Shown piece by piece: positions 583 to 35,479 of a stretch of 35,479 nt of DNA. The notes under the pieces are model-generated. The model did not search any database. It saw only the letters and a program-made list of their open reading frames with translations, and was not told the DNA's origin. The DNA lies in the UHGV virus genome UHGV-0144289; one strand, 5' to 3'. Within the stretch, counting starts at the first letter, position 1. The number at the start of each line of letters is the position of its first letter. A program made the position numbers and the translations under genes. This DNA comes from a virus.

Positions 583-1599
583 TCATTTTTTCTGACCACC
601 AACAACCGGCACAATTTTAGTTTTCCTGTCGTAAATCGCCGTTTGTCTCGAATTCTTATGGCCTGAAATCGCCTGTTTCTCCTCGAGGCTTCCTTCCAGA
701 TCAGAGACACCTTTCGCTTTCAGATCGTGGAAAGTGAAATCTATCTGCAGGTGTGGGTTCTTTTCCTGCGCTGCGATTTTCGCGTCGCGCCAGCGTGAAT
801 TAAAACCGTCACGGGTGTATTTGCTGCCGCTGGTCTGGTGAATGACAAACAGGCTACGGATACCCGGCTTTAACGGCAGGGAACGGGCGAGGGCGACAGC
901 GGCGCGCAGGCGTGGCGACCATGCTTTGATTTGCTTCACGCCTGTTTTCCCCTGGCGGATAAAGATCCCGGTTTCGCGTATCTGGTCTTCAGTCAAAGCC
1001 AGCACATCGCTTTGTCTGGCCAGACACAAATAAGCGATTTCCATGGTGGCGCGAACTACGTCTGGAGCAACATCGTAAACCGCTTTGTATTCTTCGTCGG
1101 TGATGTAACGCTCCCGGGCTGCCTCTTTGAACTTCTTAACGCCCTGACAGGGATTATGCTGGACGTAACCCCGCTCATAACCCCAGCGGAATACCCGAGA
1201 AAGAAAACTCTTTTCCCGGTTGGCCTGCGTTTTACTGGCCATGCCACGCTGATCCATATAGCGCCGGATGTGTTCCGGTTTAATTTTATCGGGGTTAACC
1301 TTCCCGAACACCGGCAACACTTTGCCTGCGTATTTCGTGTAGTCTTTGCGGGTTTCTGCCGCTAAATCCTGCCAGTCAGGGGAAGACATGAATTGATCGG
1401 CCAGAGCCTGAAACGTCTTGCGCTCGACTTCTTCTCCCATGGCTTTTTCATATGCCAGCCATACAGCTGATTGAGGCTCGGAGAGCGCACATAGCCTGAT
1501 AGCCTTGTTATCTTTATTCCTGAATTCATACGCCGCCTTACCGCGATACACGCGGGGCGGCATCCAGTTATCAGCGGGGTTCTTACGTTTTCCGGCCAT
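583..1599 (-). CDS. int: Phage integrase, tyrosine recombinase family
   Basis: 338-aa ORF adjacent to the tRNA attachment region; C-terminal half has the catalytic-domain pattern of tyrosine recombinases (conserved R, H-x-x-R and a Tyr nucleophile near the C-terminus, ...TAIYDRKTK). Confidence 0.9.
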   Translation of the reverse strand: MAGKRKNPADNWMPPRVYRGKAAYEFRNKDNKAIRLCALSEPQSAVWLAYEKAMGEEVERKTFQALADQFMSSPDWQDLAAETRKDYTKYAGKVLPVFGKVNPDKIKPEHIRRYMDQRGMASKTQANREKSFLSRVFRWGYERGYVQHNPCQGVKKFKEAARERYITDEEYKAVYDVAPDVVRATMEIAYLCLARQSDVLALTEDQIRETGIFIRQGKTGVKQIKAWSPRLRAAVALARSLPLKPGIRSLFVIHQTSGSKYTRDGFNSRWRDAKIAAQEKNPHLQIDFTFHDLKAKGVSDLEGSLEEKQAISGHKNSRQTAIYDRKTKIVPVVGGQKK

Positions 1600-1828
1600 T
1601 AAAGATAGCTCCGAAGTCTGGTTCTTCCTCCCGCACCGTCTCTTCCTGCTGGTTGCGGTATTTAATCGGGTTCAGGAAATGGCCCCACGTCGTTTTAGGA
1701 TGGCCGTCTGCCCTTTCCATGAAAAAGACACCGGCCCGACGTAGCGCTTCACACTGCCTCGATTTAAGTGGGGTCCCCGTCAGTTCGATCATTTCCTCTC
1801 TGGTGATGATGTCGTGATCGTGTCTCAT
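1583..1828 (-). CDS. xis: Excisionase-like small DNA-binding protein
   Basis: 81-aa ORF directly upstream of and overlapping int by 17 nt; helix-turn-helix-like segment (REEMIELTGTPLKSRQCEALRRAG); start codon preceded by the GAGGAAAGACC start-associated motif. Confidence 0.5.
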   Translation of the reverse strand: MRHDHDIITREEMIELTGTPLKSRQCEALRRAGVFFMERADGHPKTTWGHFLNPIKYRNQQEETVREEEPDFGAIFNGRKT

Positions 1829-1988
1829 GGTCTTTCCTCAGCATGCCGGCTATCGCGTTGTCTGCCGTATCGCAAGCGCGTTGGATATCGGACTGGGTCA
1901 GAGTCCTCTTTCTAACGCTGGCTGATAGCCTGCCAATTTTGATATCGAAATCTGAAAGTAAAAGTGTGCCTGGTTGCCAACGTAGCAT
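1764..1988 (-). CDS. Hypothetical protein (doubtful ORF)
   Basis: 74-aa ORF overlapping the xis-like start by 65 nt; no recognisable domain; may be spurious or shorter. Confidence 0.2.
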   Translation of the reverse strand: MLRWQPGTLLLSDFDIKIGRLSASVRKRTLTQSDIQRACDTADNAIAGMLRKDHETRSRHHHQRGNDRTDGDPT

Positions 1989-2023
1989 TGTGATCTCCGG
2001 TTCATAGGTAGATCACAATGCTA
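1983..2023. repeat. Perfect 14-bp inverted repeat TAGCATTGTGATCT / AGATCACAATGCTA separated by 13 bp
   Basis: Read directly; lies in the gap between two minus-strand ORFs of the early-left operon. Confidence 0.8.
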
Positions 2024-2037
2024 ACGACAGTTGCGAG

Positions 2038-2259
2038 TTATTTCTGATTAGGCTTAATCAGGTTTGGTTTATTCCGGAACGCGCCATTTTCGCGGGTGAT
2101 TTTGGCACTGCGCGGAAAATGCATAGCCAGTTCACAACGCGCGCAGGCTTCGATTATCCCGTTAGTACCGTCCGGAAAAACGACGTGAAGCGCGTCGCCT
2201 CGTTTCAGTGTGAGTTTCAGCATATCAGCGCACCTGCAGCGAACGTTCGCCAATCTCAA
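2038..2259 (-). CDS. Hypothetical early protein
   Basis: 73-aa ORF in the leftward early operon, overlapping the next gene by a few codons; no confident domain assignment. Confidence 0.4.
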   Translation of the reverse strand: MRLANVRCRCADMLKLTLKRGDALHVVFPDGTNGIIEACARCELAMHFPRSAKITRENGAFRNKPNLIKPNQK

Positions 2260-2791
2260 GGTGAGCGCCCGGCACTGGGTTTAACAGTTCTTCCGGTATC
2301 TCTCCGCCGTCAGCGGTAATCTGGGCCGCCGCTGCCTGTGCTGATTCAATCGCTTCCTTGATGGCTTTCTTGTCCGGAGTGACTAACGTCTGAACTGTCA
2401 CTAATTCATCCGGCAGTAATTCATCATTATCGATCACGACGTTTATAGCTCCCTTACGTGCGGTAAAGGTATTTTTGGCGGTTTTAACCGTATCCTGACC
2501 GGCGGCCAGTAGACACTGGAGAACATATTTCTTCAGGTTCGTGATCTTACCTTCGAATGATTTTTTGCGGGCGGCAAGGCGTTTGGCCTCTTCATCGCAG
2601 GTTTTTGCCAGGCCTTCCAGATTGCGAACGTGGACGAAAACGGCATCCAGTTTATCGCCGAGTTGTAACTCAAGACCTTCCATTGTGTCGGCGATCATTT
2701 CAGGAGACAGACCAGCACCGTCTTCGTTTTCCAGTAGTGCCTGGAGTTTTGACATATCGGCTGCGATAGCAATTGCAGTGGTGGAAGTCAT
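2225..2791 (-). CDS. Siphovirus Gp157-family protein (commonly found next to phage recombinases)
   Basis: 188 aa; coiled-coil N-terminus and the pattern EEAKRLAARKKSFEGKITNLKKYVLQCL...TFTARKG...VIDNDELLPDEL, which resembles the Gp157 family as I recall it; immediately downstream of the annealing-protein gene. Confidence 0.5.
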   Translation of the reverse strand: MTSTTAIAIAADMSKLQALLENEDGAGLSPEMIADTMEGLELQLGDKLDAVFVHVRNLEGLAKTCDEEAKRLAARKKSFEGKITNLKKYVLQCLLAAGQDTVKTAKNTFTARKGAINVVIDNDELLPDELVTVQTLVTPDKKAIKEAIESAQAAAAQITADGGEIPEELLNPVPGAHLEIGERSLQVR

Positions 2792-4941
2792 TATGCTTTC
2801 TCCTCGGCTTTATTCAGTTCTTTAATGCGCCCATCTTTGATGGAGATGAGTCGGCGGAGCCGGCCAGACAGATAACGTTCATGCTGCGTGTCGCCGTTGG
2901 CCTGGGCGGCTTTAATGTGAACATCGATCTCACGTGCGATAGGGGAAAACACACCGTTGATTTCGTTCACCGTCACGCCATGCGCCAGGGTATTAGCAAC
3001 GCGGCTTAATTTATCGTCAAACTCCTGGCGGAGCCGTGCTGCATCTTCGGCTGATTCGCTGGCGTTCTTCAGGTCAAACTCGGCCTTGTTCTTCTGGCGG
3101 TACTCCAGATTGTCGTAAAGCCCCATAAAGATATCGCCACTGAATCCGAGGCCGGATAACGCTTTTTTGGTCGCATCTGTCAGTGATTTTTTGGCTGCTT
3201 CGCCGTCGCAGGTGATCCCGTATTTACTACCGTAAATGTAGGGTGTACAGCCGTATGCTGTTTCCTCACCTCGTACTCCGTTCAGGATGTACCAGAGCCG
3301 GACAGTCACAACATGGTGCTGTTCGTTGACGGTATTACCATTCCCATCAAGAACCAGCTCCCACGATGCGTTGTTGTCTTTGCCTTTTACCTGCCGAGTG
3401 ATCGGCGCGCCAATATCGAAACGCTCTTCAACAATATCCACGCCCCAGCCGATGCCCTTAGGGCCAAACTCACGTGTGGCAAGCATGGTCATGTAGGTAC
3501 CGTTGATCGAGGTGCCACCGCCGTTCTGTGTGAAAGCCTTAGTAAACCTTTCGTCGGTTTTAAATACGCGTTTCCAGAGGTCTAAATTGTCTTCCCCGAT
3601 AATTGGTTTTCCGACAGCCTGCACAACATCCTCAGCGTTAGGCAGGCTTTCAGCGTGAGCGATTTGTTTTGCTAAACGCTCGGAATCATCAGCCAGTTTT
3701 TCAGCCTTAACGCTTAACTTCTCTTCCGGCTCTGCACCTTCACCAGAGGCATATACGCCATAACCCATATCATTGAGCGTCTCACGCGCCTGTTTGGCCT
3801 GAGTGTCGGTTACAACCGGCTGCTGCGCTTCCACTTTTTCGCCCACGTTTGAGGCGGTATTTTGCGTCGCCTCTGGTTGTTTAACGGATCCTGTCTCGGT
3901 TTCCTCAAAGCGACCGTTGGCCGCCAGCCATGAATCGATATGGCGGCGCAGGCTGTCAGGGAAATGGTAGGTATCTTTCGCCGGTACGTTTTGTACCACG
4001 CCGAAGATGCTGGCACGGTCGTATTTGAGTATCTGCGGCGTGGTGTGCAGCGATGCTGACCAGCGTTTAAAATCTTCCCGGTCATCGGAAATCATCTTCT
4101 TAGCGTCCAGAAGGTTTCCGGATAGTACCGGCGCATCAGGCGCCAGCGGGAGAAGGGCGGTAGCGATCTCCTGATCCAGCGTTGCATAAGTGTGTTTATA
4201 CCCGCGCTTAGAAATTACCACGGGTGTTTTATCATCGGTGCTGGTGCTGAGAGCGGTATTTTTATATACGCCGGGGGCCAGTTCGTCGCGCTTGCCCGGA
4301 TTCTCAAGCCAGCGTTTAACGAACTGAGAGATAGCCGCTTTGCCCGGCGTCTGGTTTTCAAAGTGGGAGAAAATACCCTGAATAAGATTGTTCAGACCTT
4401 CCACATGCATGCTTTGAACCGGGAAGTTATTTTGCAGGGCGCACAGAACATTAAAGTTAAAGCGATCTTCCTCTTCAAATTCCCCATCGTGGTTTTTCAG
4501 ATTATCCAGATAATCCACAACCTGAGAATAAAGATGGCCATCAATCGCCGCGGTGCTAAAAAGCAGGACGGCAGCAAAGCGTTCATCAGGGGAAACGGTC
4601 ATCAGGTCGATCACTTCATCGTCGGCTGGTAAACCTGCACCACTTCCGGAAGCGCTATCCTGCGCAGTAGAAACCCATTTTTCACCGTCAAAAGTATGCT
4701 GCTGGGCGAATGACTCATCGAACTGGCCAACGGTCGGCAGCGGCTGGCCTTCAACGTGTTCCCACAGTTTCGGTTTGAAATAGTTGTCACCATTGGCCGG
4801 GTATGATTCCCAGAGTTTGCCGGTCATAATGCTTTCGGCCACTTTTTTGTTTGGCGCATCGATGGCGATCGCCAGCTGCACGGCGCCGCAGTCTTTAATC
4901 GCCGATTTCTTTGGCTCAAATGAGCCGTTGTAGATGGTCAT
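2791..4941 (-). CDS. Large recombination protein with a C-terminal Erf/Rad52-like single-strand annealing domain and a ~430-aa N-terminal region of unknown function
   Basis: 716 aa from the ATG at 4941 (preceded by GAGGAAAGACCA). The C-terminal third (YGCTPYIYGSKYGITCDGEAAKKSLTDATKKALSGLGFSGDIFMG) resembles the conserved core of Erf/Rad52-type annealing proteins. Position in the early-left operon fits a recombination function. Confidence 0.6.
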   Translation of the reverse strand: MTIYNGSFEPKKSAIKDCGAVQLAIAIDAPNKKVAESIMTGKLWESYPANGDNYFKPKLWEHVEGQPLPTVGQFDESFAQQHTFDGEKWVSTAQDSASGSGAGLPADDEVIDLMTVSPDERFAAVLLFSTAAIDGHLYSQVVDYLDNLKNHDGEFEEEDRFNFNVLCALQNNFPVQSMHVEGLNNLIQGIFSHFENQTPGKAAISQFVKRWLENPGKRDELAPGVYKNTALSTSTDDKTPVVISKRGYKHTYATLDQEIATALLPLAPDAPVLSGNLLDAKKMISDDREDFKRWSASLHTTPQILKYDRASIFGVVQNVPAKDTYHFPDSLRRHIDSWLAANGRFEETETGSVKQPEATQNTASNVGEKVEAQQPVVTDTQAKQARETLNDMGYGVYASGEGAEPEEKLSVKAEKLADDSERLAKQIAHAESLPNAEDVVQAVGKPIIGEDNLDLWKRVFKTDERFTKAFTQNGGGTSINGTYMTMLATREFGPKGIGWGVDIVEERFDIGAPITRQVKGKDNNASWELVLDGNGNTVNEQHHVVTVRLWYILNGVRGEETAYGCTPYIYGSKYGITCDGEAAKKSLTDATKKALSGLGFSGDIFMGLYDNLEYRQKNKAEFDLKNASESAEDAARLRQEFDDKLSRVANTLAHGVTVNEINGVFSPIAREIDVHIKAAQANGDTQHERYLSGRLRRLISIKDGRIKELNKAEEKA

Positions 4942-4985
4942 TGGTCTTTCCTCTTGGTTACTGGCGCAGGTCACGCGCCGGTTAA

Positions 4986-5333: not shown

Positions 5334-5452
5334 CAGAGCCGATCAGCGGCTCTGTCGTTGGTCTTTCCTCGCTACAGGGTTGGTCCCCTGTAGCATTCTG
5401 GGCGGTTTGGTCACTGTCCCGGGTAAATTAGCCCACTTCGGTGGGCTTTTTT
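5334..5452 (+). ncRNA. Candidate small antisense RNA in the early-left leader (speculative)
   Basis: Possible extended -10 (TGATATATA, ~5323-5331), then two strong hairpins (5334-5354 and 5371-5394) and a textbook intrinsic terminator on the plus strand (AGCCCAC-TTCG-GTGGGCT plus six T, 5430-5452). No plus-strand gene exists here. Confidence 0.25.
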
Positions 5453-5527
5453 ACGCCTGAAGGTTGCCGGTCTTTCCCGGCTGTCAGGGTGGTCAGCCCC
5501 ATTGGTCTTTCCTCGTTACTGCGTGAA

Positions 5528-5560
5528 TGCTTTAAAAAAATGCCCGGGGCGCCCGGGCCA
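5528..5560 (-). terminator. Intrinsic terminator on the minus strand within the early-left leader
   Basis: On the minus strand: GC-rich hairpin GCCCGGGCGCCCCGGGC followed by TTTTTTT. Lies between the putative PL promoter and the first early-left gene, implying an antitermination requirement. Confidence 0.5.
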
Positions 5561-5748
5561 AGACTACACACAGCAATTCGTATTCGTTGCGGTCTTTCCC
5601 GCATGTCATCGTACTGTCGGCGACCCGAAGAATTCGCGCCCGTCTTTCCGGACTGTCAGAACTGTTTCTGAACAACTGCCGCGTGGTTAGTGCGTCTTTG
5701 ATGTGGTGAAGCATAACCAAAGGTATTTTTATTGGCAATGTTTTTTAC

Positions 5749-5809: not shown

Positions 5810-6223
5810 TTATTTTTTTGGAGTGTTTTTTTTCTTTTTTACCAAAAGTAACTCATCAAACAATCGCTGGAATCCGTCAACTTTATCTTTCAACTCATTG
5901 ATATGTCTATCTTTTTCTGATTCAGGTAGAGAATCAAAAAGATCAAGCAGTAGCTTTTGGCGATCATCTAACCGAGGTAAAAGCTCTTCTGCCTTCAACG
6001 GTTCATCGCTATCGGTACCGTTAAGTAACCATGTCGGAGAGCAACGAAGAGCCTCAGCGAGAGAAAACAGATTTTGCCCTTTTGGGGTGTTAATACCTGC
6101 TTCCCACTTGTAAACGCTGACGCCAGATATGCCAACGGCATCGGCGAGCTGCTGTTGTGTCAAACCAAGCTCTTTCCGTCTCGATGTAATGCGATCGTTA
6201 AAGGTCAATTTTTTCATATCCAT
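5810..6223 (-). CDS. Prophage repressor, XRE-family helix-turn-helix protein with no recognisable autocleavage (peptidase S24-like) domain
   Basis: 137 aa; N-terminal HTH (LTQQQLADAVGISGVSVYKWEAG); divergent from the cro-like gene across an operator region; the C-terminal part is acidic/coiled-coil with a lysine tail and shows no LexA/cI-type catalytic signature. Confidence 0.8.
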   Translation of the reverse strand: MDMKKLTFNDRITSRRKELGLTQQQLADAVGISGVSVYKWEAGINTPKGQNLFSLAEALRCSPTWLLNGTDSDEPLKAEELLPRLDDRQKLLLDLFDSLPESEKDRHINELKDKVDGFQRLFDELLLVKKKKNTPKK

Positions 6224-6291: not shown

Positions 6292-6489
6292 ATGAAGACC
6301 GAAACTGTTATCAGATTTTTTGGAACTAAAACCGCTGTTGCGCGTGCATTAGGTATCTCTCAAGTCGCTGTAACCCGCTGGGGGACTGTTGTTCCTGAAA
6401 AGCGAGCTGCGCGACTTGAGCATGTAACCGCGGGCGCCTTGAAGTACGACCCTACTTTTTACGAAGAGCAAAACACGTCTAAAGCATAA
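6292..6489 (+). CDS. Cro-like / YdaS-like small HTH regulator
   Basis: 65 aa; HTH (TKTAVARALGISQVAVTRW); first gene of the rightward early operon, RBS AGGAGAGG. Confidence 0.7.
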   Translation: MKTETVIRFFGTKTAVARALGISQVAVTRWGTVVPEKRAARLEHVTAGALKYDPTFYEEQNTSKA

Positions 6490-6551: not shown

Positions 6552-6998
6552 GTGGAATACCTCGAAGAACTTAAACGAGAGATCTTTAACTGGGCAGCGG
6601 AAAGCGGGCAGGAGCTGGTTGCTATCGAGATAAGCCGCATGTGGTTTCGTCTTGGTGGTAATACCGGTTCGCTGAAGCTGCACCAGATCGAAGATGCAGA
6701 TGGAAACGCCGACTGGCGGGCAATCAACAACAACCGCCAACAAATTTTTCGTTGGTTGCGAGGCGAGACCAAAGCCGCGAGAGCCAAAACTCTGGCGCTG
6801 GTCAAAGCGATGGAAGCGGCGCTGCCGGCAGAACGTTACGCGCGCTTGGGTATGTCCACCCAGTATTTAATTTGTGTGGCCATTCGTGAGTTTGCCGCGG
6901 CGATTATCGCGTTATTACTCGACGCCAGAGACGGGCCGCAGCAAGTCGCCAGAGCATTGCAAGCTATGCGAGAAACACAGCGCCTGACCAGCGTTTAA
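6552..6998 (+). CDS. YdaT-like (CII-like) regulatory protein
   Basis: 148 aa, GTG start with RBS AGGAGA; position after the cro-like gene and the motif RWLRGETKAARAK are reminiscent of the Rac-prophage YdaT family (from memory). Confidence 0.45.
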   Translation: MEYLEELKREIFNWAAESGQELVAIEISRMWFRLGGNTGSLKLHQIEDADGNADWRAINNNRQQIFRWLRGETKAARAKTLALVKAMEAALPAERYARLGMSTQYLICVAIREFAAAIIALLLDARDGPQQVARALQAMRETQRLTSV

Positions 6999-7018
6999 CC
7001 TGTACCGAGGAAAGACCA

Positions 7019-7240
7019 ATGAGAACACAAGACCGCATCACCTGGCGGAACGGGTTTCGCCGGAACGGGGTACAAGTCCCGATGGAAGATATCGAATCGA
7101 TTTTCGAGGAACGTCGCGCTACTGCGCTGACAATCTGGGAACGCTACGAACTGCGCAAGGCAGACCTGCAGGAAGCGGGACTTACCCAGAAAGAATACGA
7201 AATCGCCTGCCGTCAGCTGGCTGACTCGCTGGGGATCTGA
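7019..7240 (+). CDS. Hypothetical small protein upstream of the replication genes
   Basis: 73 aa; ATG preceded by the GAGGAAAGACCA start-associated motif. Confidence 0.6.
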   Translation: MRTQDRITWRNGFRRNGVQVPMEDIESIFEERRATALTIWERYELRKADLQEAGLTQKEYEIACRQLADSLGI

Positions 7241-7242: not shown

Positions 7243-8235
7243 ATGAATATTTTGCCATTACTCGACAGGCCGATCGCCTTCCAGCGCAGTTTTATTCGTC
7301 TGGATATTGGTGTGACGGCTGCGCTGTTTCTATCACAAATGACCTACTGGACTAACCGGTCCGACGATGACGGATGGGTGTATAAAACTCAGGAAGAATG
7401 GGAAGAAGAAACCGGCCTTTCCCGCTATGAGCAGGAGGGGGCGCGTAAGAAACTCCGCTCAATTGGTGTACTACTGGAAAAAAGAAAAGGCGTTCCTGCG
7501 CGACTTTTCTACAAAGTAGATAATAACGTTTTATATCAGGTGCTTGCAGCTGCAAACAAGAATGCGGAAAAACCACATACTGGAATGCGGAAAACCACCA
7601 AACAAGTCAGGGGAAAACCAGCAAACTTTCTTACAGAGAATACTACAGAGAATATATATACCCCTAACCCCTTAGAGGAGGAAGGCGTTGAGTTAATTCT
7701 TTCTGATGCACAAAAAGCGCTGGAATTTTACAACGAGCAAACCGGTACCCGCTGCCGTGACCTGAAACCGTTTGTGATGATGCTGACGCCGACCACCACC
7801 CGGGAAGGGTACACACTGGACGAATTGCAGTTAGTTATCCGCTGGGTGCTGGCCACATGGCGCCGCCGTGGCGATAGCCTGCCGAAGCCAGCGAACATCT
7901 GCCGGGTAAACCGCTTTGATGGTTATCTCGCTGACGCTGAAGCATGGGCGGTGACCGAAACCGATATTGATCCGGAAGCCGTTATGAACGGCTACAACGA
8001 AATTTTTGCTGATGTTCTGCCCGCTGCTGAATTGGACACAGACCGCCGCCGGATGATCACCCGTCTGGCCGCCCATATGAAAAACAAAACCACGGGCGCA
8101 TTTCTGGGCTATTTCGAAAAATTCCGCGCTGACGCCTCCGATTTTTACTTTGGTGAAAATGGCGGATGGCGCGCCAGCTTTGACTACCTGATGAAGCCTG
8201 AAACATTGCGTAAAACTCGTGAGGGATCGCTATGA
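7243..8235 (+). CDS. Phage replication initiation / replisome organiser protein
   Basis: 330 aa; N-terminal winged-helix-like domain; directly upstream of and overlapping the helicase gene by 4 nt, the usual O/P-type arrangement. Confidence 0.6.
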   Translation: MNILPLLDRPIAFQRSFIRLDIGVTAALFLSQMTYWTNRSDDDGWVYKTQEEWEEETGLSRYEQEGARKKLRSIGVLLEKRKGVPARLFYKVDNNVLYQVLAAANKNAEKPHTGMRKTTKQVRGKPANFLTENTTENIYTPNPLEEEGVELILSDAQKALEFYNEQTGTRCRDLKPFVMMLTPTTTREGYTLDELQLVIRWVLATWRRRGDSLPKPANICRVNRFDGYLADAEAWAVTETDIDPEAVMNGYNEIFADVLPAAELDTDRRRMITRLAAHMKNKTTGAFLGYFEKFRADASDFYFGENGGWRASFDYLMKPETLRKTREGSL

Positions 8236-9620: not shown

Positions 9621-9658
9621 CCGCGCCTGACCAGCGCGATTTAACTGAGGAAAGACCA

Positions 9659-10327
9659 ATGACCACGAATTTAAATTACCCAAAACCAGTAAAACCGGAT
9701 GATGGCTGCAACTGGCTCCCCGTTATTCTCTGGCGCATGAATGCCGGTGCGCGCGCCCGTAGCCGTTCCGTGTTCGTAGCGGCGCCACGTCCGGCCCCTG
9801 TACCAGGCATCACCCCGCAAAAACCGATTAAGCGAGAAATTATCGCCCCTACGGTTTCCGGCCGCAGGCGTAAAACCCACATCGGCACCGTGATTTATTC
9901 CAGAGGTGAAAAAAGCGTTCGCCTTAGCGAAGGCGCGACTGTCTGGTCTGCTGGCTCAAATGAGCATTTCGATAAAAAAACGGGCCAGCGCGTCGGCAGT
10001 ATTGGTCGTCACCGTCTGGTGCTGGAGAGTATCCGCCCATTGCAGGCCAGCGACGCACAACAGGACGCCGGGAGCGTCACCGCGCAGCAACTGGTAGCCG
10101 TGATGAAAGGCAAAACGCTTTCTTACCAGGGCATTCTGGCATTAATCCAGAAGCACTATCCCGATTGTCAGGTGACGACTAAAGAACTTCACGATCGCGT
10201 GTTCGGCATGTTCATGTCGAATTACGTGGGTATCACCCGTCACGACGATATGCCGGTGGTTCACTTCACGCTTAACAGCGTCGATCCCCGTTATTACATC
10301 GAGTCAGCGAAGAACAAGAGGGCATAA
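9659..10327 (+). CDS. Hypothetical protein (no recognised domain)
   Basis: 222 aa; ATG preceded by GAGGAAAGACCA and a conserved upstream block GCGCCTGACCAGCG. Confidence 0.6.
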   Translation: MTTNLNYPKPVKPDDGCNWLPVILWRMNAGARARSRSVFVAAPRPAPVPGITPQKPIKREIIAPTVSGRRRKTHIGTVIYSRGEKSVRLSEGATVWSAGSNEHFDKKTGQRVGSIGRHRLVLESIRPLQASDAQQDAGSVTAQQLVAVMKGKTLSYQGILALIQKHYPDCQVTTKELHDRVFGMFMSNYVGITRHDDMPVVHFTLNSVDPRYYIESAKNKRA

Positions 10328-11318: not shown

Positions 11319-11320
11319 CC

Positions 11321-12165: not shown

Positions 12166-12177
12166 CTGAGGTGGTTA

Positions 12178-12516: not shown

Positions 12517-12539
12517 CGAACAACCATACCAGTTAAAAC

Positions 12540-12678: not shown

Positions 12679-12698
12679 TTGTTGTTGAGGGAGAGGTA

Positions 12699-28935: not shown

Positions 28936-28939
28936 TAGC

Positions 28940-29374
28940 CTAGTTACACGAACTAACAGTAACTGCATTGAAGAATGTTCCGGAGGGGTAGGTGTAAACA
29001 TATTGCATCTCCCCACCTAATCTAATGAATGAACCCAGTGGATTTTTATTCGTGCATAACCCATTTTTTGTTATTTCATCCATTCGAGATTTAGCAACGT
29101 CGATTGAAGTATGGGTCTCTGAAGCGGTAGCCAGCATTTCTTCTTCGGTTACGCCTAGCCTTACCTGCGCGATTATTTTGTTTCCATCAGCAGAAACATC
29201 TTTCATTATTACGTTTTCTGATAACGTTAAGGGCAGTCTGGGGCGTACCTGAGTGACGATTTTCTGAGCCTGTTCGCATACATCAAACTCAGTTAAGTTT
29301 GGTTTACACTTATCTGCTGCGAATGCCGGATGTGAGATCATTACTAATATCGAAATTAGACCAATTTTTTTCAT
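28940..29374 (-). CDS. Secreted protein of unknown function (moron, opposite strand)
   Basis: 144 aa; N-terminal signal peptide MKKIGLISILVMISHPAFA-AD; four Cys in the mature part; AT-rich; has its own A/T-rich promoter region at 29375-29460. Confidence 0.7.
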   Translation of the reverse strand: MKKIGLISILVMISHPAFAADKCKPNLTEFDVCEQAQKIVTQVRPRLPLTLSENVIMKDVSADGNKIIAQVRLGVTEEEMLATASETHTSIDVAKSRMDEITKNGLCTNKNPLGSFIRLGGEMQYVYTYPSGTFFNAVTVSSCN

Positions 29375-29463
29375 GAAAAATAAACGCCTTTAGCTGAGTG
29401 TTAGGTATAAGAAACATTTAACAAAAAACCATACAGCGATCAATTTTATAATTAGATTAGAAA

Positions 29464-29480
29464 TAGTCAGGATTCCGACC
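29464..29480. repeat. Late-region hairpin motif TAGTCAGGATTCCGACC, copy 2
   Basis: Same 17-mer at 34300-34316; preceded by a TATAAT-like element. Confidence 0.8.
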
Positions 29481-29527
29481 TCTAAGCCGACACATCATAG
29501 CCCTATGGATAAACACGGGGCTTTTTT

Positions 29528-29869
29528 ATGCATTCAGATTACAAAACTCGCCTTACTGCTCTTAGCGATAAGCTCACCGACGTAGTTCTGGAAGAAGCCG
29601 ATCCGGATAACTGGCCGGGGGCAGGGAAGGAAATCACAAAGCACACTAAACAGGAACGCGGTGATCGGTACTGGCATAAGAAGAACGCGGCCGCATCGCT
29701 GACGCTGCTGGTAAAAGTCCATTCGCTGATTGGCATGCATACGCGCGGGGGGACGCCTAAACCCGGCGAGGATCCGGACGATGAAGCATTCCGCCTGGGG
29801 CAACAGGTATCTGCGGCTGAACGGGCAGCACAGGAAGTTATCGAACGCATACAACAGCGGAAAAAATGA
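29528..29869 (+). CDS. Putative terminase small subunit
   Basis: 113 aa; immediately upstream of and overlapping the large-subunit gene by 4 nt; assignment by position only. Confidence 0.4.
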   Translation: MHSDYKTRLTALSDKLTDVVLEEADPDNWPGAGKEITKHTKQERGDRYWHKKNAAASLTLLVKVHSLIGMHTRGGTPKPGEDPDDEAFRLGQQVSAAERAAQEVIERIQQRKK

Positions 29870-31476
29870 TTTCATTCGTCGCCTTTTTCATCATATGGGC
29901 GGAGCGGATGGGGTGGGAGGTTCCCGACTGCCATTATCGAGCCTGCCACTGGTTGGAACACCGCGGGGATCTCGCGGTGCTTCGCTGTTTTCGTGGCTTT
30001 GGTAAATCTACCATTCTGGCGGTGTATAACGCATGGCGATATTACCAGAACCGCCAGTACCGCATTCTTCACCAGTCTGAAGCTGACGGCACCGCGTACA
30101 AAACCAGCCGCGATACGCAGAACGTTTTACGCAATCACCCACTGACCAAAGGCATGCTACCGGACGGACAGGGAACCGTTGAACAGTGGTGGGTTAACGG
30201 CTCTCTGGATATGCGTAACGGCAGCATGTACGCAAAGGGGATCCTCTCTAACGTTACCTCGGCCCGCGCTGATGAATGCCAGAACGATGACGTAGAAGTA
30301 CCCCGCAATATCCAGACGCCAGAGGCGCGGGAAAAGCTGCGTTATCGTCTCGGTGAACAGACACACATTCTTGTCCCCGGCGGGCGAAAGCTGTTTATCG
30401 GCACGCCGCATACCCACGATAGCCTTTACGATGAGGTTGAATCTATGGGCGCCGACTGTCTGACCATCAAACTATTCGGTAAAGAATTTAGAATCGAGGA
30501 AAAACAGGCCACTGCGAGCCGTTACTCGTTACCGTTCCGGCCGGAATATGTTTTCGTCGGTATTCACATTGGCGCGCGACTGCTCGTTGAAGGTGTTGAT
30601 TATCGTCTTAACGATGACGGTATCGAGTTTGCCGAGGCTCCCGGCACCACGGTTGACTGTTACGCCGATTGTGAATGGCCAGAAAGGTTCACTCCGGAGG
30701 AAATGACAAAGCGCCGTCGCGAGACTCGCACAATTAACGAATGGGACAGCCAGTACCAGCTGCACAGTAAACCGGTTGGCGAGGTTCGTCTCGATCCCGA
30801 CCGCATACGCGAATACAACGTACAGCCTGAAATCCGGTACGCGAACCGCTCCTGCTCGATGTGGCTTGGCCAGACGCAAATTGTTGGTGCTGTTGCCTGG
30901 TGGGATGTGGCCACCGGCAAAGTTAAGGCCGACGCCTCGGCGTTCTCTCTGATTTTCACCGACGCACGCGGGCATCTGTACTGGCATGTTTGCCAGGGGC
31001 TTACGGGCGAACTGGCGGAATTCGACGACAACGACAAAATCACCGGCGGTCAGGTGATGCAGATTAAAGAGCTGGTGCTTAAATACCAGATCCCGCTGGT
31101 CTGCGTCGAGGTGAACGGCCCGGGCAGCTTTGCCGGGAAATTGCTGATTCAGGCACTAAAGGGTACCGGCTGCGGCGTACGGGAAGAATTCAGCGTGACC
31201 AATAAACAAAAGCGCATCCTCGATGCATTCGAAGCGCCGCTGTCGTCGCGCTTCCTCTGGGCGCATACCGACGTGCTCGACGGCCCAATGTATGACCAGA
31301 TGCGCGACTTTAACCCGGCGCTGACTAATCAGCCAGATGACTTTATCGACTCTGGCTCTGGCGCAATCAGCTCAACACCAGTGCGCATTGGTAAATTGGT
31401 CGGGATTCCGACCGCACAGGCGCGGGAACATTGGCAACCAAATGATGGCGATCACATGGTCGCCGTAGATTACTAG
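29866..31476 (+). CDS. Terminase large subunit (T7 gp19-like)
   Basis: 536 aa; Walker A-like FRGFGKST in the N-terminal ATPase domain, acidic catalytic residues downstream; size matches T7-type terminases. Confidence 0.8.
   Translation: MISFVAFFIIWAERMGWEVPDCHYRACHWLEHRGDLAVLRCFRGFGKSTILAVYNAWRYYQNRQYRILHQSEADGTAYKTSRDTQNVLRNHPLTKGMLPDGQGTVEQWWVNGSLDMRNGSMYAKGILSNVTSARADECQNDDVEVPRNIQTPEAREKLRYRLGEQTHILVPGGRKLFIGTPHTHDSLYDEVESMGADCLTIKLFGKEFRIEEKQATASRYSLPFRPEYVFVGIHIGARLLVEGVDYRLNDDGIEFAEAPGTTVDCYADCEWPERFTPEEMTKRRRETRTINEWDSQYQLHSKPVGEVRLDPDRIREYNVQPEIRYANRSCSMWLGQTQIVGAVAWWDVATGKVKADASAFSLIFTDARGHLYWHVCQGLTGELAEFDDNDKITGGQVMQIKELVLKYQIPLVCVEVNGPGSFAGKLLIQALKGTGCGVREEFSVTNKQKRILDAFEAPLSSRFLWAHTDVLDGPMYDQMRDFNPALTNQPDDFIDSGSGAISSTPVRIGKLVGIPTAQAREHWQPNDGDHMVAVDY
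31398..31413. repeat. Late-region hairpin motif GGTCGGGATTCCGACC, copy 3 (inside the 3' end of the terminase gene)
   Basis: Part of an identical 20-mer shared with 18685-18704; ~80 nt upstream of the tail-fibre start. Confidence 0.8.
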
Positions 31477-31493
31477 CCGCCGGAGTTCCTCGT

Positions 31494-34013
31494 ATGTCGG
31501 TACCGAACCAGACACCCTATAACATCTATACCGCCAACGGGCTGACGACTGTCTTTGCCTATGAGTTTTACCTGATCAGCGCCAGCGATATTCAGGTCAC
31601 AATCAACGGCAACGAAGTAACGTCCGGCTATACAGTGTCTGGTGTGGGTAATACTGGCGGTGGCGAAGTTACTTTTCTGACCGCGCCGGCCAATGGCGCT
31701 ACAGTCATTTTTGAACGTGTAACGCCGACTTACAGGCTCACTGATTACCAGGACAACGGCGACCTGCTGGCCGATACAGTTAACAAAGATTTTGACCGTC
31801 TCTGGATGGCTATTCAGCGCGCGTTTATTTATCTCGGAGTGGCCCTAAGTCGCCCGCTGTTCGGCGGTGGACCTTTCAACGCTAACGGCTACCGGATAGC
31901 AAATCTGGCCGATCCAGTTAACGATCAGGATGCAGCTACTAAAAAATTTGTAATTGAAAATGGAAAAATTAATCTAGCTCGTACTCTACGCGTTCCGGAG
32001 TCTAGCATCACACCGTTACCTTCCATTGCAGAACGAAAAAATAAAATCGTTGCAATGGATAATAATGGCAATCCATTGATGGTATTGCCTTCGAGTGGAA
32101 GTGCAGCAGATGTAATGATTGAGTATGCCAAACCGACAGGTAGCGGGCATATAGGGGTTCTTACTGGAGGCACCGTTGAAGATGCAATAAAATACGTAAC
32201 CCCTGAAATGATAAGGATTAATGGTGAAAGATATATTCACGGCATCACTGCTGATGCAACTAAATTTCTACAGGCAGCTATAGATTACGGAAAAGCTAAT
32301 AACCTTCCGGTATATTTAACTAAAATGTATCCGTGCATATCTTCACCGATAGAGTTTAATTTGCCATTCGACGATGGGACTGTATACCCAGGGTGGATAG
32401 GGAACGGTGATTCAAATATTGCTCCTGAAATACCAGTTAAGGCAAAAGCAGCACTGCGTGTTTATGATGATTCAATGATTGTTGGTGAAAACCAACACAA
32501 TTGTGGGATTATTGGTAATTTTTCAAAAACTGCGGGACCATGGGATCATACATCTTCCATGGGTCTATACATCGCAGGTGACAGCGGACCAGATCAATAC
32601 ATAAAGTATCACCTTTCTGATTTCAGGATTAGCGGATTCTTTATTGGGCAATGGGTAGACGGGACTGTAAACCGCTGTGTAGAAAATAATATGATGTACT
32701 CAGGGTGTGCCATTCCTGCTTGTTATCAAGGATCTGATTCTCTGGCGCAAACTGGGCTGACATTATATTGGTATAATATTACAGGCCCTGTTTTTGGCGG
32801 GCGCTGGCTAACGAGAAATCATGCATACGCGTCTCAGTACCTTCCGCCGTACCCGGCATCAGATATTCATCGGGCGGGATGGAATGATTCGTACCATGTA
32901 GACAAGTTTCATTATTATGGTGATACCGGCATGGACTGGACACATCCAGCATATGCCGCTCTTGACACTTGGTTTGATACGTATGTTTTCAAGTCTGCAA
33001 ACTGCTTGCCTACGGCCAGCGGTGGTCGGTTGTCAAATAATCAGCAGAATGGGGTTTACCCAGTTGATACCTATAGAGGTATAGCTGGGCGCGCAAGAAC
33101 TATTATTTCACTTCCGGGAAGGGAGATATTGCATTGCAATATTGGTGAGGCTAAAGTGCTGTGGTCTCCAAGAACGCCATTCTACCACTCTGCTCAATTC
33201 GTTGACGGATTTAAATCATATGTTGGTAACAGTAAAATAAGGACTCTTATACTGGAAAGGGTAGGAATCATCAAGTATGGCCTTGGTGATGTTGCTGGAA
33301 ATAGATTTAATGTTAATAATGTTGATCCCTACGAACCATCTCTTTCAACATTTCCAGCGATGGCAACAAGAGGAAATATTTTCGCCCTTGATATTGTAAA
33401 AGGTGGCGCGGTTCAGGCTGCCCCAGTTAATGAATTTAACGGCACAAGAATCGGTGCCGGTGAGAATATAGTTGCTCAAAGAAAGCTTGGAGATAATTCA
33501 AACTATCGTCTTTTCGGTCTTCAGGAGTTAAACGGAACAAATTTATCCGATAAGTATGTTTTTAATCGAAATGATGCCTATATGCCGCCAATAGCTTTTC
33601 CCGGTGGTAATGCTGCTCAGTTTAAGTATCTTTATGGCACATTCGCACCAACTATTACAATTGGCGGCGCAAGCGTAATACCATCATCCATTATTGGAAT
33701 TTACCGTCGGTTTGGTGATGTTGTTCGTTGCGATATAAGGGTCAGATCAACCTCTTTACTGGTTAGCACTGCGGGCGCCATAGTAATTAGTGGTCTTCCT
33801 TTTACAGCCGCTTCTATACAGGAGGGTGGGTCTAAAGGAAGCATAATTCTTAGTACGGCTACAGGGGTTTTAGTTATGCCGCTTGTTCCTGCTGGGACAA
33901 ATCAAATGACGATTATTAAATCGTCAGCCCAAGAAATATATTCTCAAGCAGCTGGTACTTTTGATTTCACTCTCCAGTGTACTTTTGATTATGTTGTTCC
34001 TTTTAATTCATGA
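31494..34013 (+). CDS. Tail fibre / tailspike: T7 gp17-like N-terminal adaptor fused to a large receptor-binding (probably polysaccharide-depolymerase-like) domain
   Basis: 839 aa; N-terminal ~150 aa resemble the T7 gp17 N-terminus (GYRIANLADPVNDQDAATKKFV versus T7 GRRIVNLANAVDDRDAVPFGQL, from memory); the remainder is AT-rich, Asn/Gly/Tyr-rich. Confidence 0.85.
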   Translation: MSVPNQTPYNIYTANGLTTVFAYEFYLISASDIQVTINGNEVTSGYTVSGVGNTGGGEVTFLTAPANGATVIFERVTPTYRLTDYQDNGDLLADTVNKDFDRLWMAIQRAFIYLGVALSRPLFGGGPFNANGYRIANLADPVNDQDAATKKFVIENGKINLARTLRVPESSITPLPSIAERKNKIVAMDNNGNPLMVLPSSGSAADVMIEYAKPTGSGHIGVLTGGTVEDAIKYVTPEMIRINGERYIHGITADATKFLQAAIDYGKANNLPVYLTKMYPCISSPIEFNLPFDDGTVYPGWIGNGDSNIAPEIPVKAKAALRVYDDSMIVGENQHNCGIIGNFSKTAGPWDHTSSMGLYIAGDSGPDQYIKYHLSDFRISGFFIGQWVDGTVNRCVENNMMYSGCAIPACYQGSDSLAQTGLTLYWYNITGPVFGGRWLTRNHAYASQYLPPYPASDIHRAGWNDSYHVDKFHYYGDTGMDWTHPAYAALDTWFDTYVFKSANCLPTASGGRLSNNQQNGVYPVDTYRGIAGRARTIISLPGREILHCNIGEAKVLWSPRTPFYHSAQFVDGFKSYVGNSKIRTLILERVGIIKYGLGDVAGNRFNVNNVDPYEPSLSTFPAMATRGNIFALDIVKGGAVQAAPVNEFNGTRIGAGENIVAQRKLGDNSNYRLFGLQELNGTNLSDKYVFNRNDAYMPPIAFPGGNAAQFKYLYGTFAPTITIGGASVIPSSIIGIYRRFGDVVRCDIRVRSTSLLVSTAGAIVISGLPFTAASIQEGGSKGSIILSTATGVLVMPLVPAGTNQMTIIKSSAQEIYSQAAGTFDFTLQCTFDYVVPFNS

Positions 34014-34020
34014 GGCAAAT

Positions 34021-34290
34021 ATGACTTTCAGAGTGACGCAGACTATAGGGAAATCTATAGCATACCCAACGCTAGGTGTATGGATGCCACCAGAAGATAC
34101 TTCGATTGAGGTTGAATACCAGGCTGTATCGTTAATATCGCTAAATAATGGAACAGCGACTGTTTCATTTAAAGTTAGCATTGATGGTTGTCTTTCCAGT
34201 GGGGAGCTTACCCATTCTTTTGTCTACTCTGGGTCTGGAAGCCCTCTTGAAGAGGCAGAGGAATCACTTAAAAGCAAACTCGTAATATAG
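34021..34290 (+). CDS. Small protein downstream of the tail fibre (possible fibre accessory/chaperone)
   Basis: 89 aa from the ATG at 34021; same low GC as the fibre C-terminal domain. Confidence 0.45.
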   Translation: MTFRVTQTIGKSIAYPTLGVWMPPEDTSIEVEYQAVSLISLNNGTATVSFKVSIDGCLSSGELTHSFVYSGSGSPLEEAEESLKSKLVI

Positions 34291-34300
34291 AATTTCATTT

Positions 34301-34316
34301 AGTCAGGATTCCGACC
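34301..34316. repeat. Late-region hairpin motif AGTCAGGATTCCGACC, copy 4
   Basis: Upstream of the lysis cassette; preceded by a TAGAAT-like element. Confidence 0.8.
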
Positions 34317-34372
34317 TTAGCTTCGCCTTACCCTCGCATCATTCCACATAGTGATCCCCATGGGGGTAAGGC

Positions 34373-34603
34373 ATGCGAATGAAGAATTTACCGGATGTGG
34401 CGGCTGGCACGTCGTACATCACATCCACTGTCAGCGGGAGCTACTGGCTGCTGCAACTTCTCGATAAGGTAAGCCCCAGCCAGTGGGCGGCTATTGGCGT
34501 ACTAGCCAGTATTGTTTTTGGGCTGCTTACCTACCTCACTAATTTGTATTTCAAAATCAAAGACGACCGGCGGAAGGCACAGGACTATGAGCAACAAAGC
34601 TAA
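34373..34603 (+). CDS. Holin, phage-21 S-like pinholin with dual-start motif (M-R-M)
   Basis: 76 aa; two transmembrane segments; sequence [58 protein letters not shown] closely resembles the S21 pinholin as I recall it. Confidence 0.8.
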
Positions 34604-35123
34604 GTTCAGCGCCGCTATGCTGGCGCTTCTGGCCGCCGGTGCATCTGCACCGGTACTGTTCGATCAGTTTATCAGCGAAAAAGAAGGTAACGCGCTGGTG
34701 GCCGTTGTTGACCCCGGCGGTGTGTGGTCATTGTGCCACGGAGTAACCGTTATAGATGGCAAGCGTGTCATTAAGGGCCAAAGAGCAACTGAGGAACAGT
34801 GCAGGAAGGTAAACGCCATTGAGCGTGATAAGGCGCTGGCCTGGGTAGAAAAGAATGTGCTCGTTTCTTTGACGCCGCCGCAGAAGGTCGGCATAGCCTC
34901 ATTCTGCCCGTACAACATCGGGCCGGGTAAGTGCTTCCCCTCAACGTTCTATCGCAAGCTGAACGCAGGCGACCGTAAAGGTGCATGCGCGGAGATCCGG
35001 CGATGGGTGTTCGACGGAGGCCGGGATTGCCGACTGACCAAAGGCCAGAAGAATGGCTGCTACGGGCAGGTTGACCGCCGCGATCAGGAAAGCGCTTTGA
35101 CGTGCTGGGGGCTGTACGAATGA
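34587..35123 (+). CDS. SAR endolysin (signal-anchor-release lysozyme, phage-21 R-like)
   Basis: 178 aa; N-terminal SAR segment [19 protein letters not shown], catalytic-region motifs [20 protein letters not shown] and [23 protein letters not shown] similar to R21. Confidence 0.85.
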
Positions 35124-35479
35124 ACGGAAAAACCAAACTGGTGATTGTTGGTGGCGTGCTGGCGGTATGCGCCGGGATTTACTGGGCGGGGTATCTGAAA
35201 GGCTGGTACGCACATTCAGAGCAAGTAAACAGCCAGGCTAAACAAAGGCTACCGAAGCAGGAAAAGGCAGTTGCCGCTGGTGAGCAGAAAGCAGCGACGG
35301 CGAACGCCGAAGCCAAAGTGATTTACCGTACCGTTTATCGTGATGTGGTGAAATATGTCAATGACCCGAATCGTACTGTGTGCCAGTTTGATCCTGCTGC
35401 TGTGCAGCTGCGCCAACGAGCAATCGACGCGGCCAACGCCATCCCCGGATTTGATGAACCGACCGTGCAAGATAAGTAA
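35120..35479 (+). CDS. Rz-like i-spanin
   Basis: 119 aa; N-terminal transmembrane helix (LVIVGGVLAVCAGIYWAGYL) followed by coiled-coil periplasmic domain; start overlaps endolysin stop. Confidence 0.7.
   Translation: MNGKTKLVIVGGVLAVCAGIYWAGYLKGWYAHSEQVNSQAKQRLPKQEKAVAAGEQKAATANAEAKVIYRTVYRDVVKYVNDPNRTVCQFDPAAVQLRQRAIDAANAIPGFDEPTVQDK
35355..35479 (+). CDS. Rz1-like o-spanin embedded in the +1 frame of Rz (3' end beyond the window)
   Basis: Out-of-frame ORF MSMTRIVLCASLILLLCSCANEQSTRPTPSPD... with lipobox LLLCSC and a Pro-rich mature part. Confidence 0.6.
   Translation, partial: MSMTRIVLCASLILLLCSCANEQSTRPTPSPDLMNRPCKIS

Follow-up and report, generated by a model that had tools for sequence, protein, structure and literature searches.

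A mosaic Klebsiella prophage that joins a lambdoid early region to a T7-supergroup virion module without a phage RNA polymerase, and five predicted host-polymerase late promoters

Introduction

The viral DNA UHGV-0144289 (35,479 nt; "the window" denotes this whole stretch) carries a temperate podovirus prophage in which a 16-nt imperfect dyad is repeated at five places, each before a block of late genes, and in which a small gene for a helix-turn-helix (HTH) protein stands directly upstream of the first copy. Concerning the architecture, we see hardly any room for doubt: the prophage is a recombinational mosaic, in which a lambdoid/Rac-like early region has been joined to a T7-supergroup virion module and a lambdoid lysis cassette, without the single-subunit RNA polymerase (RNAP) of T7-like phages. 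As an explanation for the whole, we favor a mosaic temperate podovirus prophage whose late promoters would be read by the host polymerase with the HTH protein as activator, and assign to this combined reading a probability of roughly 0.7.

Prophage Extent, Integration Site and Host

Phage DNA extends from the integrase gene (583–1599, minus strand) to the last base of the window, where the gene for the Rz-like spanin ends with its stop codon. By ARAGORN and Rfam, genes for tRNA-Gly, tRNA-Cys and tRNA-Leu(UAA) have been located within 151–452, and the left attachment site overlaps the last of these three:

366–452, plus strand: tRNA-Leu(UAA) gene, the integration target (ARAGORN, Rfam), with tRNA-Gly and tRNA-Cys upstream
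397–538, no strand assigned: attL identity block, with its copy at attR 254 nt past the window end

The right boundary has been read from a further contig (L018), which is 100% identical to window positions 19866–35479 (15,614 nt) and then runs past the window end. There, 397–538 recurs as attR over 143 nt (96.5% identity); within this stretch, 53 nt from the 3′ part of the tRNA-Leu gene are repeated exactly, and host genes come after it (a DHDPS-family gene, yecA and tyrP). Since attR lies 254 nt beyond the window and host genes come next, the prophage measures ~35.3 kb, from attL at ~397–538 to attR just outside the window, which holds nearly all of it. The left boundary at 583 that the original prediction had given has been moved to attL, inside and just after the tRNA-Leu gene. 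The temperate podovirus genome was inserted by a tyrosine integrase, with the 3′ half of tRNA-Leu(UAA) as its target. An Escherichia coli relative (L001) has the same insertion site, gene order and right end, with attR after Rz; its integrase is 98% identical in amino acids, its late half 83% identical in nucleotides.

Exact matches to the TerL (large terminase) protein have been found on 141 contigs, those to the capsid protein on 44, and because K. pneumoniae and other members of Klebsiella prevail among the source names of these sequences and of their clusters, the prophage is assigned to a Klebsiella chromosome. Further relatives have been taken from a species-representative genome set, which has provided 12 related loci of 75–86% identity, none of them identical, that span eight genera and extend ~5 kb upstream of the portal gene.

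The Virion and Lysis Modules

The genes of the late half are given below with the profile families and scores on which their assignment is based (ORF, open reading frame):

14808–18183, plus: head-assembly block of two late-leader genes (14808–15257 and 15268–15489), portal, Bbp19-family gene and scaffold-position gene (PHROGs, Pfam)
15493–17118, plus: portal (PF12236, 410 bits, cut-off 27)
after the portal, plus: Bbp19-family gene (PF25181)
17335–18183, plus: gene in the scaffold position (PHROGs; position)
18217–18633, plus: N4 gp49/Sf6 gp66 family gene (PF13876, 115 bits), an accessory insertion absent from several relatives
18853–19758, plus: major capsid protein (PF19821, 235 bits; phrog_3437)
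19818–20381, plus: tail tubular protein A (phrog_394)
20381–22372, plus: nozzle/tubular protein B (phrog_376; PF25675 Phage_nozzle, 32.9 bits, cut-off 27)
22372–22824, plus: GNAT acetyltransferase (PF00583)
22827–23315, plus: gp14-like protein (phrog_418, phrog_1044 and phrog_342 for the internal-protein block; PF24072 T7_gp14 at 19 bits, below the cut-off of 27)
23321–26032, plus: 903-aa SLT-domain protein (PF01464)
26032–28935, plus: 967-aa gp16-like internal virion protein (phrog_342, "internal virion protein")
28940–29374, minus: gene with a signal-peptide-like N-terminus (ORF translation; phrog_8772), variable or replaced in relatives
29528–31476, plus: small-terminase-position ORF, assigned by position alone, and overlapping T7-type TerL (phrog_38; PF22530, 28.4 bits, cut-off 27)
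31494–34013, plus: tail fibre/spike with a gp17-type N-terminal adaptor (PF03906, 43.7 bits, cut-off 25.2)
34373–35479, plus: lambdoid lysis cassette of class II holin, lysozyme and Rz-like spanin (PHROGs; Pfam on the L018 genes)

In profile searches and BLASTP the structural proteins have been placed in T7-type families and not in P22-like or siphovirus ones, as had been expected from the letters of the window. The expectation that the late half follows T7 almost gene for gene has been confirmed in part: the families and order shared with T7 run from portal, scaffold and capsid through tubular proteins A and B to the internal proteins, together with the terminase and the gp17-type adaptor, whereas the fibre stands after the terminase, a GNAT gene occupies the gp13 position, Bbp19- and N4-gp49-family genes are inserted, and lysis is lambdoid. 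Direct BLASTP similarity to T7 is significant for three proteins only, namely the portal (23% over 417 aa to gp8, E 5e-12), TerL (32% to gp19, E 5e-20), which carries the RNaseH-like T7 domain PF22530, and the fibre N-terminus (36% over 89 aa to gp17, E 1e-4). Tubular proteins A and B have given no significant BLASTP match to gp11 and gp12, and the internal proteins have given E values of 0.01 and 1.1 against gp16; they fit in number and order, with weak homology. In a tblastn search of all window proteins against T7, TerL and an HNH protein have been recovered and nothing else. Judged from these alignments, the term T7-like holds at the supergroup level only, and the lineage to which the module belongs is a temperate one that has no RNA polymerase of its own. 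The GNAT gene between the nozzle and the gp14-like gene has been kept in nearly all relatives that cover this position, including vB_EcoM_APEC (31% aa identity).

The Early Region

The early half has been found to be of lambdoid/Rac type, in agreement with the original prediction, with all of the gene classes named there recovered at their places by PHROGs and Pfam:

583–1599, minus: tyrosine integrase (phrog_1, E 1e-52)
1583–1828, minus: excisionase, DUF4224 type (phrog_1266; annotation of the L001 homologue)
2225–2791, minus: Sipho_Gp157/Gam-like protein (PF05565, 120 bits; phrog_253 and phrog_2489 are given for this gene and the next as a pair, 2225–4974)
2791–4974, minus: 727-aa exonuclease-like protein (PHROGs as for the pair)
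5810–6223, minus: CI-like repressor with HTH_3 domain (PF01381, 59 bits; PHROG repressor families)
6292–6489, plus: Cro-like gene (phrog_409/phrog_163, for this gene and the next as a pair)
6552–6998, plus: YdaT/CII-like gene (PF06254 YdaT, 76 bits)
7243–8235, plus: RepO-like initiator (phrog_428, phrog_9773 and phrog_19, for this gene and the next as a pair)
8232–9620, plus: DnaB-type helicase (PHROGs as for the pair)
10331–14337, plus: nin-like region with HolE-theta-like protein, MT-A70/Dam methylase, two HNH endonucleases, NinB and Ref-type nuclease (PHROGs; PF16786)

Besides the listed genes, the minus-strand block holds further small genes. The features expected of a lambdoid phage are thus present, with int and xis beside the attachment site, divergent CI and Cro genes, a CII-like gene, O and helicase genes, a nin region and an S-R-Rz cassette, and the early order is lambdoid with a Rac flavour that comes from the YdaT homologue. 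An S24 peptidase domain has not been found by Pfam in the CI-like repressor, and none of the ORFs between the DnaB and portal genes has shown a PHROG or Pfam match to a Q-type antiterminator.

Absence of a Phage RNA Polymerase

It had been noticed that no RNAP gene lies between integrase and portal, and this has been borne out by each search made. T7 RNAP compared with the window by six-frame phmmer and sensitive tblastn has given noise only (best E 0.07 over 43 aa), which has led us to reject a degraded copy or one in another reading frame, and the same was obtained with the complete E. coli relative including its flanks and with the 12 related loci. No RNA_pol match has been found by Pfam among the large ORFs, and every ORF of at least 500 aa falls into another family. 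Assigned ORFs cover ~95% of 583–35479 with a largest unassigned gap of 205 bp, and hence no room is left for such a gene. A location beyond the window, raised earlier as the place to look, has likewise been rejected: past 35479 there is no RNAP gene, attR follows after 254 nt and then host genes, and in L018 as in the E. coli relative the prophage is closed by attR behind the Rz gene. The records of YeP4 and vB_EcoM_APEC, two phages discussed below, have no RNAP annotated.

Five Repeated Dyads as Predicted Late Promoters

The repeated element is an imperfect dyad of 16 nt, (A/G)GTC(A/G)GGAWWC(C/T)GA(C/A)C, which occurs at five places of the plus strand and before late gene blocks only. The sites are given as dyad, spacer length and downstream hexamer:

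14754–14787, plus: site 1, predicted late promoter 1; GGTCGGGAAACTGACC, 12 nt, CACAAT; 53 nt before the first late gene
dyad at 18687, feature 18654–18720 including an upstream hairpin, plus: site 2, predicted late promoter 2; GGTCGGGATTCCGACC, 12 nt, AACAAT; before the capsid gene
29465–29498, plus: site 3, predicted late promoter 3; AGTCAGGATTCCGACC, 12 nt, CATCAT; before the small-terminase-position ORF
31398–31431, plus: site 4, predicted late promoter 4; GGTCGGGATTCCGACC, 12 nt, GAACAT; inside the 3′ end of the TerL gene, before the fibre gene
34301–34334, plus: site 5, predicted late promoter 5; AGTCAGGATTCCGACC, 12 nt, TACCCT; before the holin and lysis genes

On both strands together the motif has 7 matches in the window, compared to 0.35 expected by shuffling, and none of them lies in the early half. 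The E. coli relative and YeP4 carry all five sites, each at the syntenic place, and most of the five positions are occupied, within the DNA that was fetched, in elements of Enterobacter, Trabulsiella, Pluralibacter, Pectobacterium, Serratia, Symbiopectobacterium and Sodalis. Alignment of 52 unique contexts has revealed a hexamer nAnnAT, located 12 nt 3′ of the dyad behind an unconserved spacer, with A at +14 in 49/52, A at +17 in 41/52 and T at +18 in 49/52. Compared with the -10 element of sigma-70, these conserved bases fall on -11, -8 and -7, and the first and the last of these positions are known to be among the most critical there. The expected -35 position reads GGAWWC, with 0/6 matches to TTGACA. 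A generic sigma-70 scan of the late region has returned 8 promoter-like sites compared to 14.9 in shuffled sequence, none at the five elements, as would be expected for promoters that have no -35 hexamer.

The five sites are, with good probability, late promoters read by the host polymerase. Host sigma-70 RNA polymerase would transcribe the late genes from these five phage-specific promoters, in which the dyad, at ~-40 to -25, would take the place of the -35 hexamer, with the -10 hexamer nAnnAT 12 bp downstream, and transcription is predicted to start near 14794, 18727, 29505, 31438 and 34341.

The promoters are accompanied by terminator-like structures. Hairpins with a T run stand directly before promoter 1 (14726–14744) and directly before promoter 2 (from 18654), and a third structure follows the capsid gene:

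19775–19800, plus: strong intrinsic terminator right after the capsid gene, kept in all relatives including vB_EcoM_APEC, with changes in stem and loop

These terminators would split the late region into units, one of which would consist of promoter, capsid gene and leaky terminator. The layout of this unit resembles phi10, gene 10 and Tphi of T7, a likeness in layout that is not evidence of descent.

Two smaller observations concern the leaders. A degenerate second dyad, GCCGGGAAACCGACA, is located at 18805–18819, downstream of predicted promoter 2 and 48 nt before the capsid start codon, and this position has been kept in several relatives, including those from Serratia and Symbiopectobacterium. 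Between the -10 hexamer of promoter 3 and the next ATG, a hairpin with a T run (AGCCC...GGGGCTTTTTT) occupies 29493–29527; it is found at the same place in all relatives, with differing stems in the Serratia/Pectobacterium group. The predicted start of promoter 3 lies in or just after the 5′ arm of this hairpin, and for this reason transcripts that arrive from upstream could be terminated here, while those initiated at promoter 3 would lack the hairpin.

A Small HTH Protein as the Candidate Late Activator

The gene adjoining site 1 encodes the only regulator-like protein that has been inherited together with the sites:

14493–14789, plus: 98-aa XRE/Cro-type HTH protein (phrog_16553; AlphaFold model)

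It closes the early-right gene block, at a place that in lambda is taken by Q. Homologues of 38–100% identity stand immediately before site 1 in all related loci long enough to include this place, and in YeP4 as well; the family has been found to be confined to Enterobacterales prophages. The AlphaFold model (pLDDT 75) displays an XRE/Cro-type HTH fold, for which the nearest solved structures in Foldseek are the N-terminal domain of P22 c2, CapH and restriction-modification (R-M) controller proteins, all weak (E 0.02–0.1). The half-sites of the dyad are 10 bp apart from centre to centre, a spacing that suits a dimer.

The pairing of protein and sites is argued mainly from their common inheritance with the virion module. 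In YeP4, to which no early protein of the window gives a match, the HTH gene has been kept together with the virion module and the sites, and in Stenotrophomonas phage BUCT708, which has early genes in common with the window, the HTH gene, the sites and this virion module are all missing. Based on this co-inheritance, we hold it for somewhat more probable than its opposite that the 98-aa protein activates the five sites, in which case an HTH dimer would bind the dyads and recruit the polymerase. In the lineage of the window, the HTH gene runs into the first dyad site, which itself supplies its seven final codons (F-G-R-E-T-D-Q, 14746–14789); elsewhere the reading frame closes before site 1, which is then intergenic.

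Alternative Explanations

The original prediction had ascribed late transcription to the host polymerase and to repeated hairpin/promoter elements, and of these two terms the promoter has been strengthened, by five syntenic sites at a fixed distance from a -10-like hexamer, while the hairpin has not been retained. A near-palindrome with a 6-bp stem and a 4-nt loop that recurs between gene blocks, with more hairpins following several sites in the leaders, might indeed act as RNA or DNA hairpin, i.e., as an RNase III-type processing or stability site, a terminator or antiterminator or a put-like RNA, and T7 carries processing hairpins between its late genes. However, three of the six stem pairs (pairs 1, 2 and 5) are broken in 16–17 of 51 unique sites, essentially uncompensated (one A-T and four G-T), and the inner TCGG/CCGA bases are invariant in all 51. 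As broken pairs lack compensation while the bases themselves stay conserved, the dyad presents itself as a DNA site recognised by a protein, not as a selected hairpin, and the latter has been rejected on the pair counts. A hairpin would also leave unexplained the conserved A at +14, A at +17 and T at +18 past an unconserved spacer, and no Rfam family has been matched beyond the three tRNAs, so that we judge this explanation very unlikely. The distribution of the element before head, capsid, packaging, fibre and lysis blocks resembles that of T7-RNAP promoters, and several conserved proteins have no assigned function; hence one may think of promoters for an unrecognised dedicated polymerase or sigma-like factor, encoded by the late-leader genes (14808–15257 and 15268–15489), injected as a virion protein or acting in trans. 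Such a factor is highly improbable, given that no T7 RNAP similarity has been detected, that the ORFs of at least 500 aa all belong to other families, that nAnnAT at fixed spacing is the signature of a sigma-70 -10 element, and that the sole regulator-like gene inherited with the sites is that of the 98-aa XRE-type protein.

Several observations count against host-read promoters with the HTH protein as their activator. The weak fold matches identify an XRE-type DNA binder, by which activator and repressor are not separable, and its family bears the PHROGs label "transcriptional repressor". With its centre near -32.5, the dyad stands nearer to the -10 element than classical class II activator sites do, and it may act in another way. 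Nor do the 52 contexts count as independent observations, since syntenic sites are homologous, and independence comes mainly from the five site classes. In the distant vB_EcoM_APEC, a phage of the same virion type, a search for repeated late motifs has brought up nothing obvious, and replication-origin iterons alone stood out, from which the five-promoter scheme is taken to be clade-specific. The PHROGs label, the position of the site over ~-40 to -25, where a bound protein would occlude the polymerase, and the repressors that make up most XRE-fold neighbours would also fit operators, in which case the HTH protein would be a repressor or timing brake on promoters that the host polymerase uses unaided, and activation, if any, would come from another factor. 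This we regard as unlikely: without a -35 match and with a partial -10, unaided activity should be very low; the HTH gene comes last in the early-right block and is presumably silenced by the CI-like repressor in the lysogen, so that the protein would be made as the late genes switch on; and R-M controller proteins, which belong to the XRE neighbours, activate at sites abutting -35. Finally, the missing recognisable S24 autocleavage domain of the CI-like repressor could point to a defective or cryptic prophage remnant, whose architecture would have no functional meaning. Against this, the module genes are all intact with 95% coding, both attachment sites are intact, proteins identical to those of the prophage are spread over more than 100 contigs of Klebsiella species, and close relatives with the same late unit have been induced and imaged, which makes a remnant quite unlikely. 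The combination of a temperate mosaic prophage with activator-dependent host-polymerase promoters is therefore the reading that we carry into the comparison with known phages.

Relationship to Known Systems

Among isolated phages, YeP4, YeP5 and YeP6 of Yersinia (MK733262-4) come closest in sequence, with a portal that is 82% identical; the next portal matches are Acinetobacter, Alcaligenes and Escherichia podoviruses (41–45%), followed by HTVC010P-type pelagiphages and by Vibrio and Bordetella phages, with five Bordetella and 25 Pelagibacter phage records (HTVC010P among the latter) among the portal matches. YeP4-6, phages of Y. enterocolitica O:9, were obtained by induction of lysogens, and their particles have been seen to be those of podoviruses in the electron microscope (PMC6548840). 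They have the whole late unit in common with the prophage, comprising HTH protein (51% aa identity), portal, capsid (87%), TerL (80%), tubular proteins, GNAT, gp14-like protein, fibre N-terminus and lysozyme, together with all five dyad sites and the Bbp19-family gene, and likewise no RNA polymerase. They differ by a DNA polymerase I/primase/helicase early set of the BPP-1/BcepC6B/Xfas53/APSE type, by another integrase and repressor, and by internal proteins that diverge after gp14. By its early genes, and not by its virion modules, YeP4 has been grouped with BPP-1, BcepC6B and Xfas53 (PMC8579659). These three phages and the pelagiphages have a T7-type short-tailed virion and a Bbp19-family gene 3′ of the portal, as found here, and differ in portal identity (at most ~45%), hosts and early modules. 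T7-type podoviruses without an RNAP, temperate as well as lytic, have long been known, and BPP-1, BcepC6B, Xfas53, the HTVC010P-type pelagiphages and VpV262/SIO1 are not known to carry one. In vB_EcoM_APEC, RepO and DnaB-type genes are paired with the same virion type. A treatment of podovirus evolution around PhiGT1 has covered the LUZ24 and Mx8 lineages, and this clade has not been treated there (PMC10386132).

The complementary case is given by Stenotrophomonas phages BUCT708 and BUCT709, which match 62% of the early half at 84% nucleotide identity, with early proteins identical up to 96% in amino acids and a lysozyme that is 77% identical, whereas their virion proteins are 28–31% identical. 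They carry another, distantly related podovirus-type virion module, another HTH gene before the late genes, and no dyad motif. As the early regions match and the virion proteins diverge, the early module assorts independently of the virion module. The record OM816834.1 ("Stenotrophomonas phage vB_SmeS_BUCT708") is named as a siphovirus, and its structural genes look podovirus-like, with an SLT internal protein besides a portal and homologues of tubular proteins A and B; it may be worth looking again at the host and morphotype recorded for BUCT708.

Compared to T7 and other Autographiviridae, the prophage lacks the single-subunit RNAP and the T7-type genes for DNA metabolism and has genes on both strands. 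With its early-left genes on the minus strand and replication genes of RepO and DnaB type, it departs from the one-strand organization and T7 replication of this family, and because no RNAP is present it is not a member of the Autographiviridae. The temperate Autographiviridae described so far have kept their RNAP, with a MarR-type switch (PMC10134795); the named members compared are LUZ100, Pasto, HTVC019P and a prophage of P. putida KT2440. Lambdoid and Rac prophages show the same order of int, xis, recombination genes, CI/Cro, YdaT/CII-like gene, O, helicase, nin genes (NinB, Ref), distal late regulator and holin-lysozyme-Rz. They differ in that Q acts there with a single late promoter, whereas five dispersed promoter-like sites are found here, and in that the virion of the prophage is neither lambda-like nor P22-like.

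Phage late promoters that depend on an activator and have no -35 element are familiar from P1 Lpa, with an inverted repeat and a -10, and from the MotA boxes of T4, and the C proteins that control R-M systems provide a further case. In all of these, a -10 element is combined with a conserved element at the -35 place, the host polymerase and a small DNA-binding factor, which is encoded by the phage, and the same scheme is proposed here. There is no sequence relationship to them; the present case would use an XRE-type fold and a 16-bp dyad near -32.5.

Implications

Temperate phages swap modules freely, and the hybrid architecture as such is not unusual: mosaics of this kind are already present in databases. 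The present hybrid is frequent among Klebsiella genomes, and its family is widespread in other Enterobacterales too, with YeP4-6 as its only close isolates in the phage collection, and literature searches have yielded no paper that specifically describes this Klebsiella family, for whose annotation a clear gene map should be of help. The one feature that we have not found described is the regulon of five promoters with its linked small HTH gene. It would be compact, with one 98-aa protein, a 16-bp site and five promoters by which a T7-type virion may be expressed without a T7-type polymerase, and it could serve as a small orthogonal activator-promoter pair.

The layout of the late unit mirrors that of T7, with a promoter before the head genes, a unit of promoter, capsid gene and terminator, and a promoter before the fibre gene. 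One may speculate, and we put this forward as a tentative idea that is rather doubtful, that the late unit is a portable cassette for transcription and morphogenesis (XRE activator, five promoters without -35, conserved terminators) which moves as a block between unrelated early modules, a lambdoid one here and one of BPP-1/APSE type in YeP4, and that it could represent a host-polymerase-dependent state from which, or alongside which, the RNAP-dependent layout of the Autographiviridae arose. If so, the phage polymerase and its promoters would have taken over promoter positions that already existed.

Further Observations

A translation-initiation sequence, GAGGAAAGACCAATG, composed of Shine-Dalgarno motif, spacer and ATG, has been found at six places on both strands:

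4937–4953, minus: copy of GAGGAAAGACCAATG
5354–5370, minus: copy of GAGGAAAGACCAATG
5498–5514, minus: copy of GAGGAAAGACCAATG
6997–7023, plus: copy of GAGGAAAGACCAATG
9637–9663, plus: copy of GAGGAAAGACCAATG
18195–18221, plus: copy of GAGGAAAGACCAATG, in the late half

Gene starts adjoin five of the six copies, and the copy near 5358 has no assigned ORF. Because one copy is placed there, and in agreement with a PHROG alignment that begins at residue 12, the 727-aa exonuclease-like ORF probably starts at the ATG near 4941 and not at the GTG at 4974. A 19-nt direct repeat, CGGTCTTTCCCGGCTGTCA, is present with its variants in three copies (5468–5486, 5590–5608 and 5640–5658), which lie just past the 3′ end of the CI-like gene (minus strand) and partly inside a small ORF (5428–5604, minus). 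The two HNH endonuclease genes of the nin-like region (11548–12165 and 13545–14042) are likely to be mobile insertions, since neither has an equivalent by tblastn in the very similar early module of BUCT708.

In the late half, the reverse-strand gene at 28940–29374 is probably a moron that is expressed in the lysogen, as suggested by its variation among relatives, in some of which another gene stands in its place. Its sigma-70-like promoter (CTGACT, 16 nt, TAAAAT) is located at 29443–29470 on the minus strand and overlaps predicted late promoter 3 on the opposite strand. Patches of low GC content (42–47%, compared to ~55–57% elsewhere in the virion module) have been observed at 25001–26000, 29001–30000 and 32001–34000, which correspond to the C-terminal part of the SLT protein, the moron region and, in the fibre, the C-terminal two thirds. 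This end of the fibre varies among otherwise near-identical prophages (672–839 aa; of sialate O-acetylesterase type in E. coli), and together with the low GC content of this part of the gene, the differing C-termini suggest that receptor-binding domains have been exchanged often.

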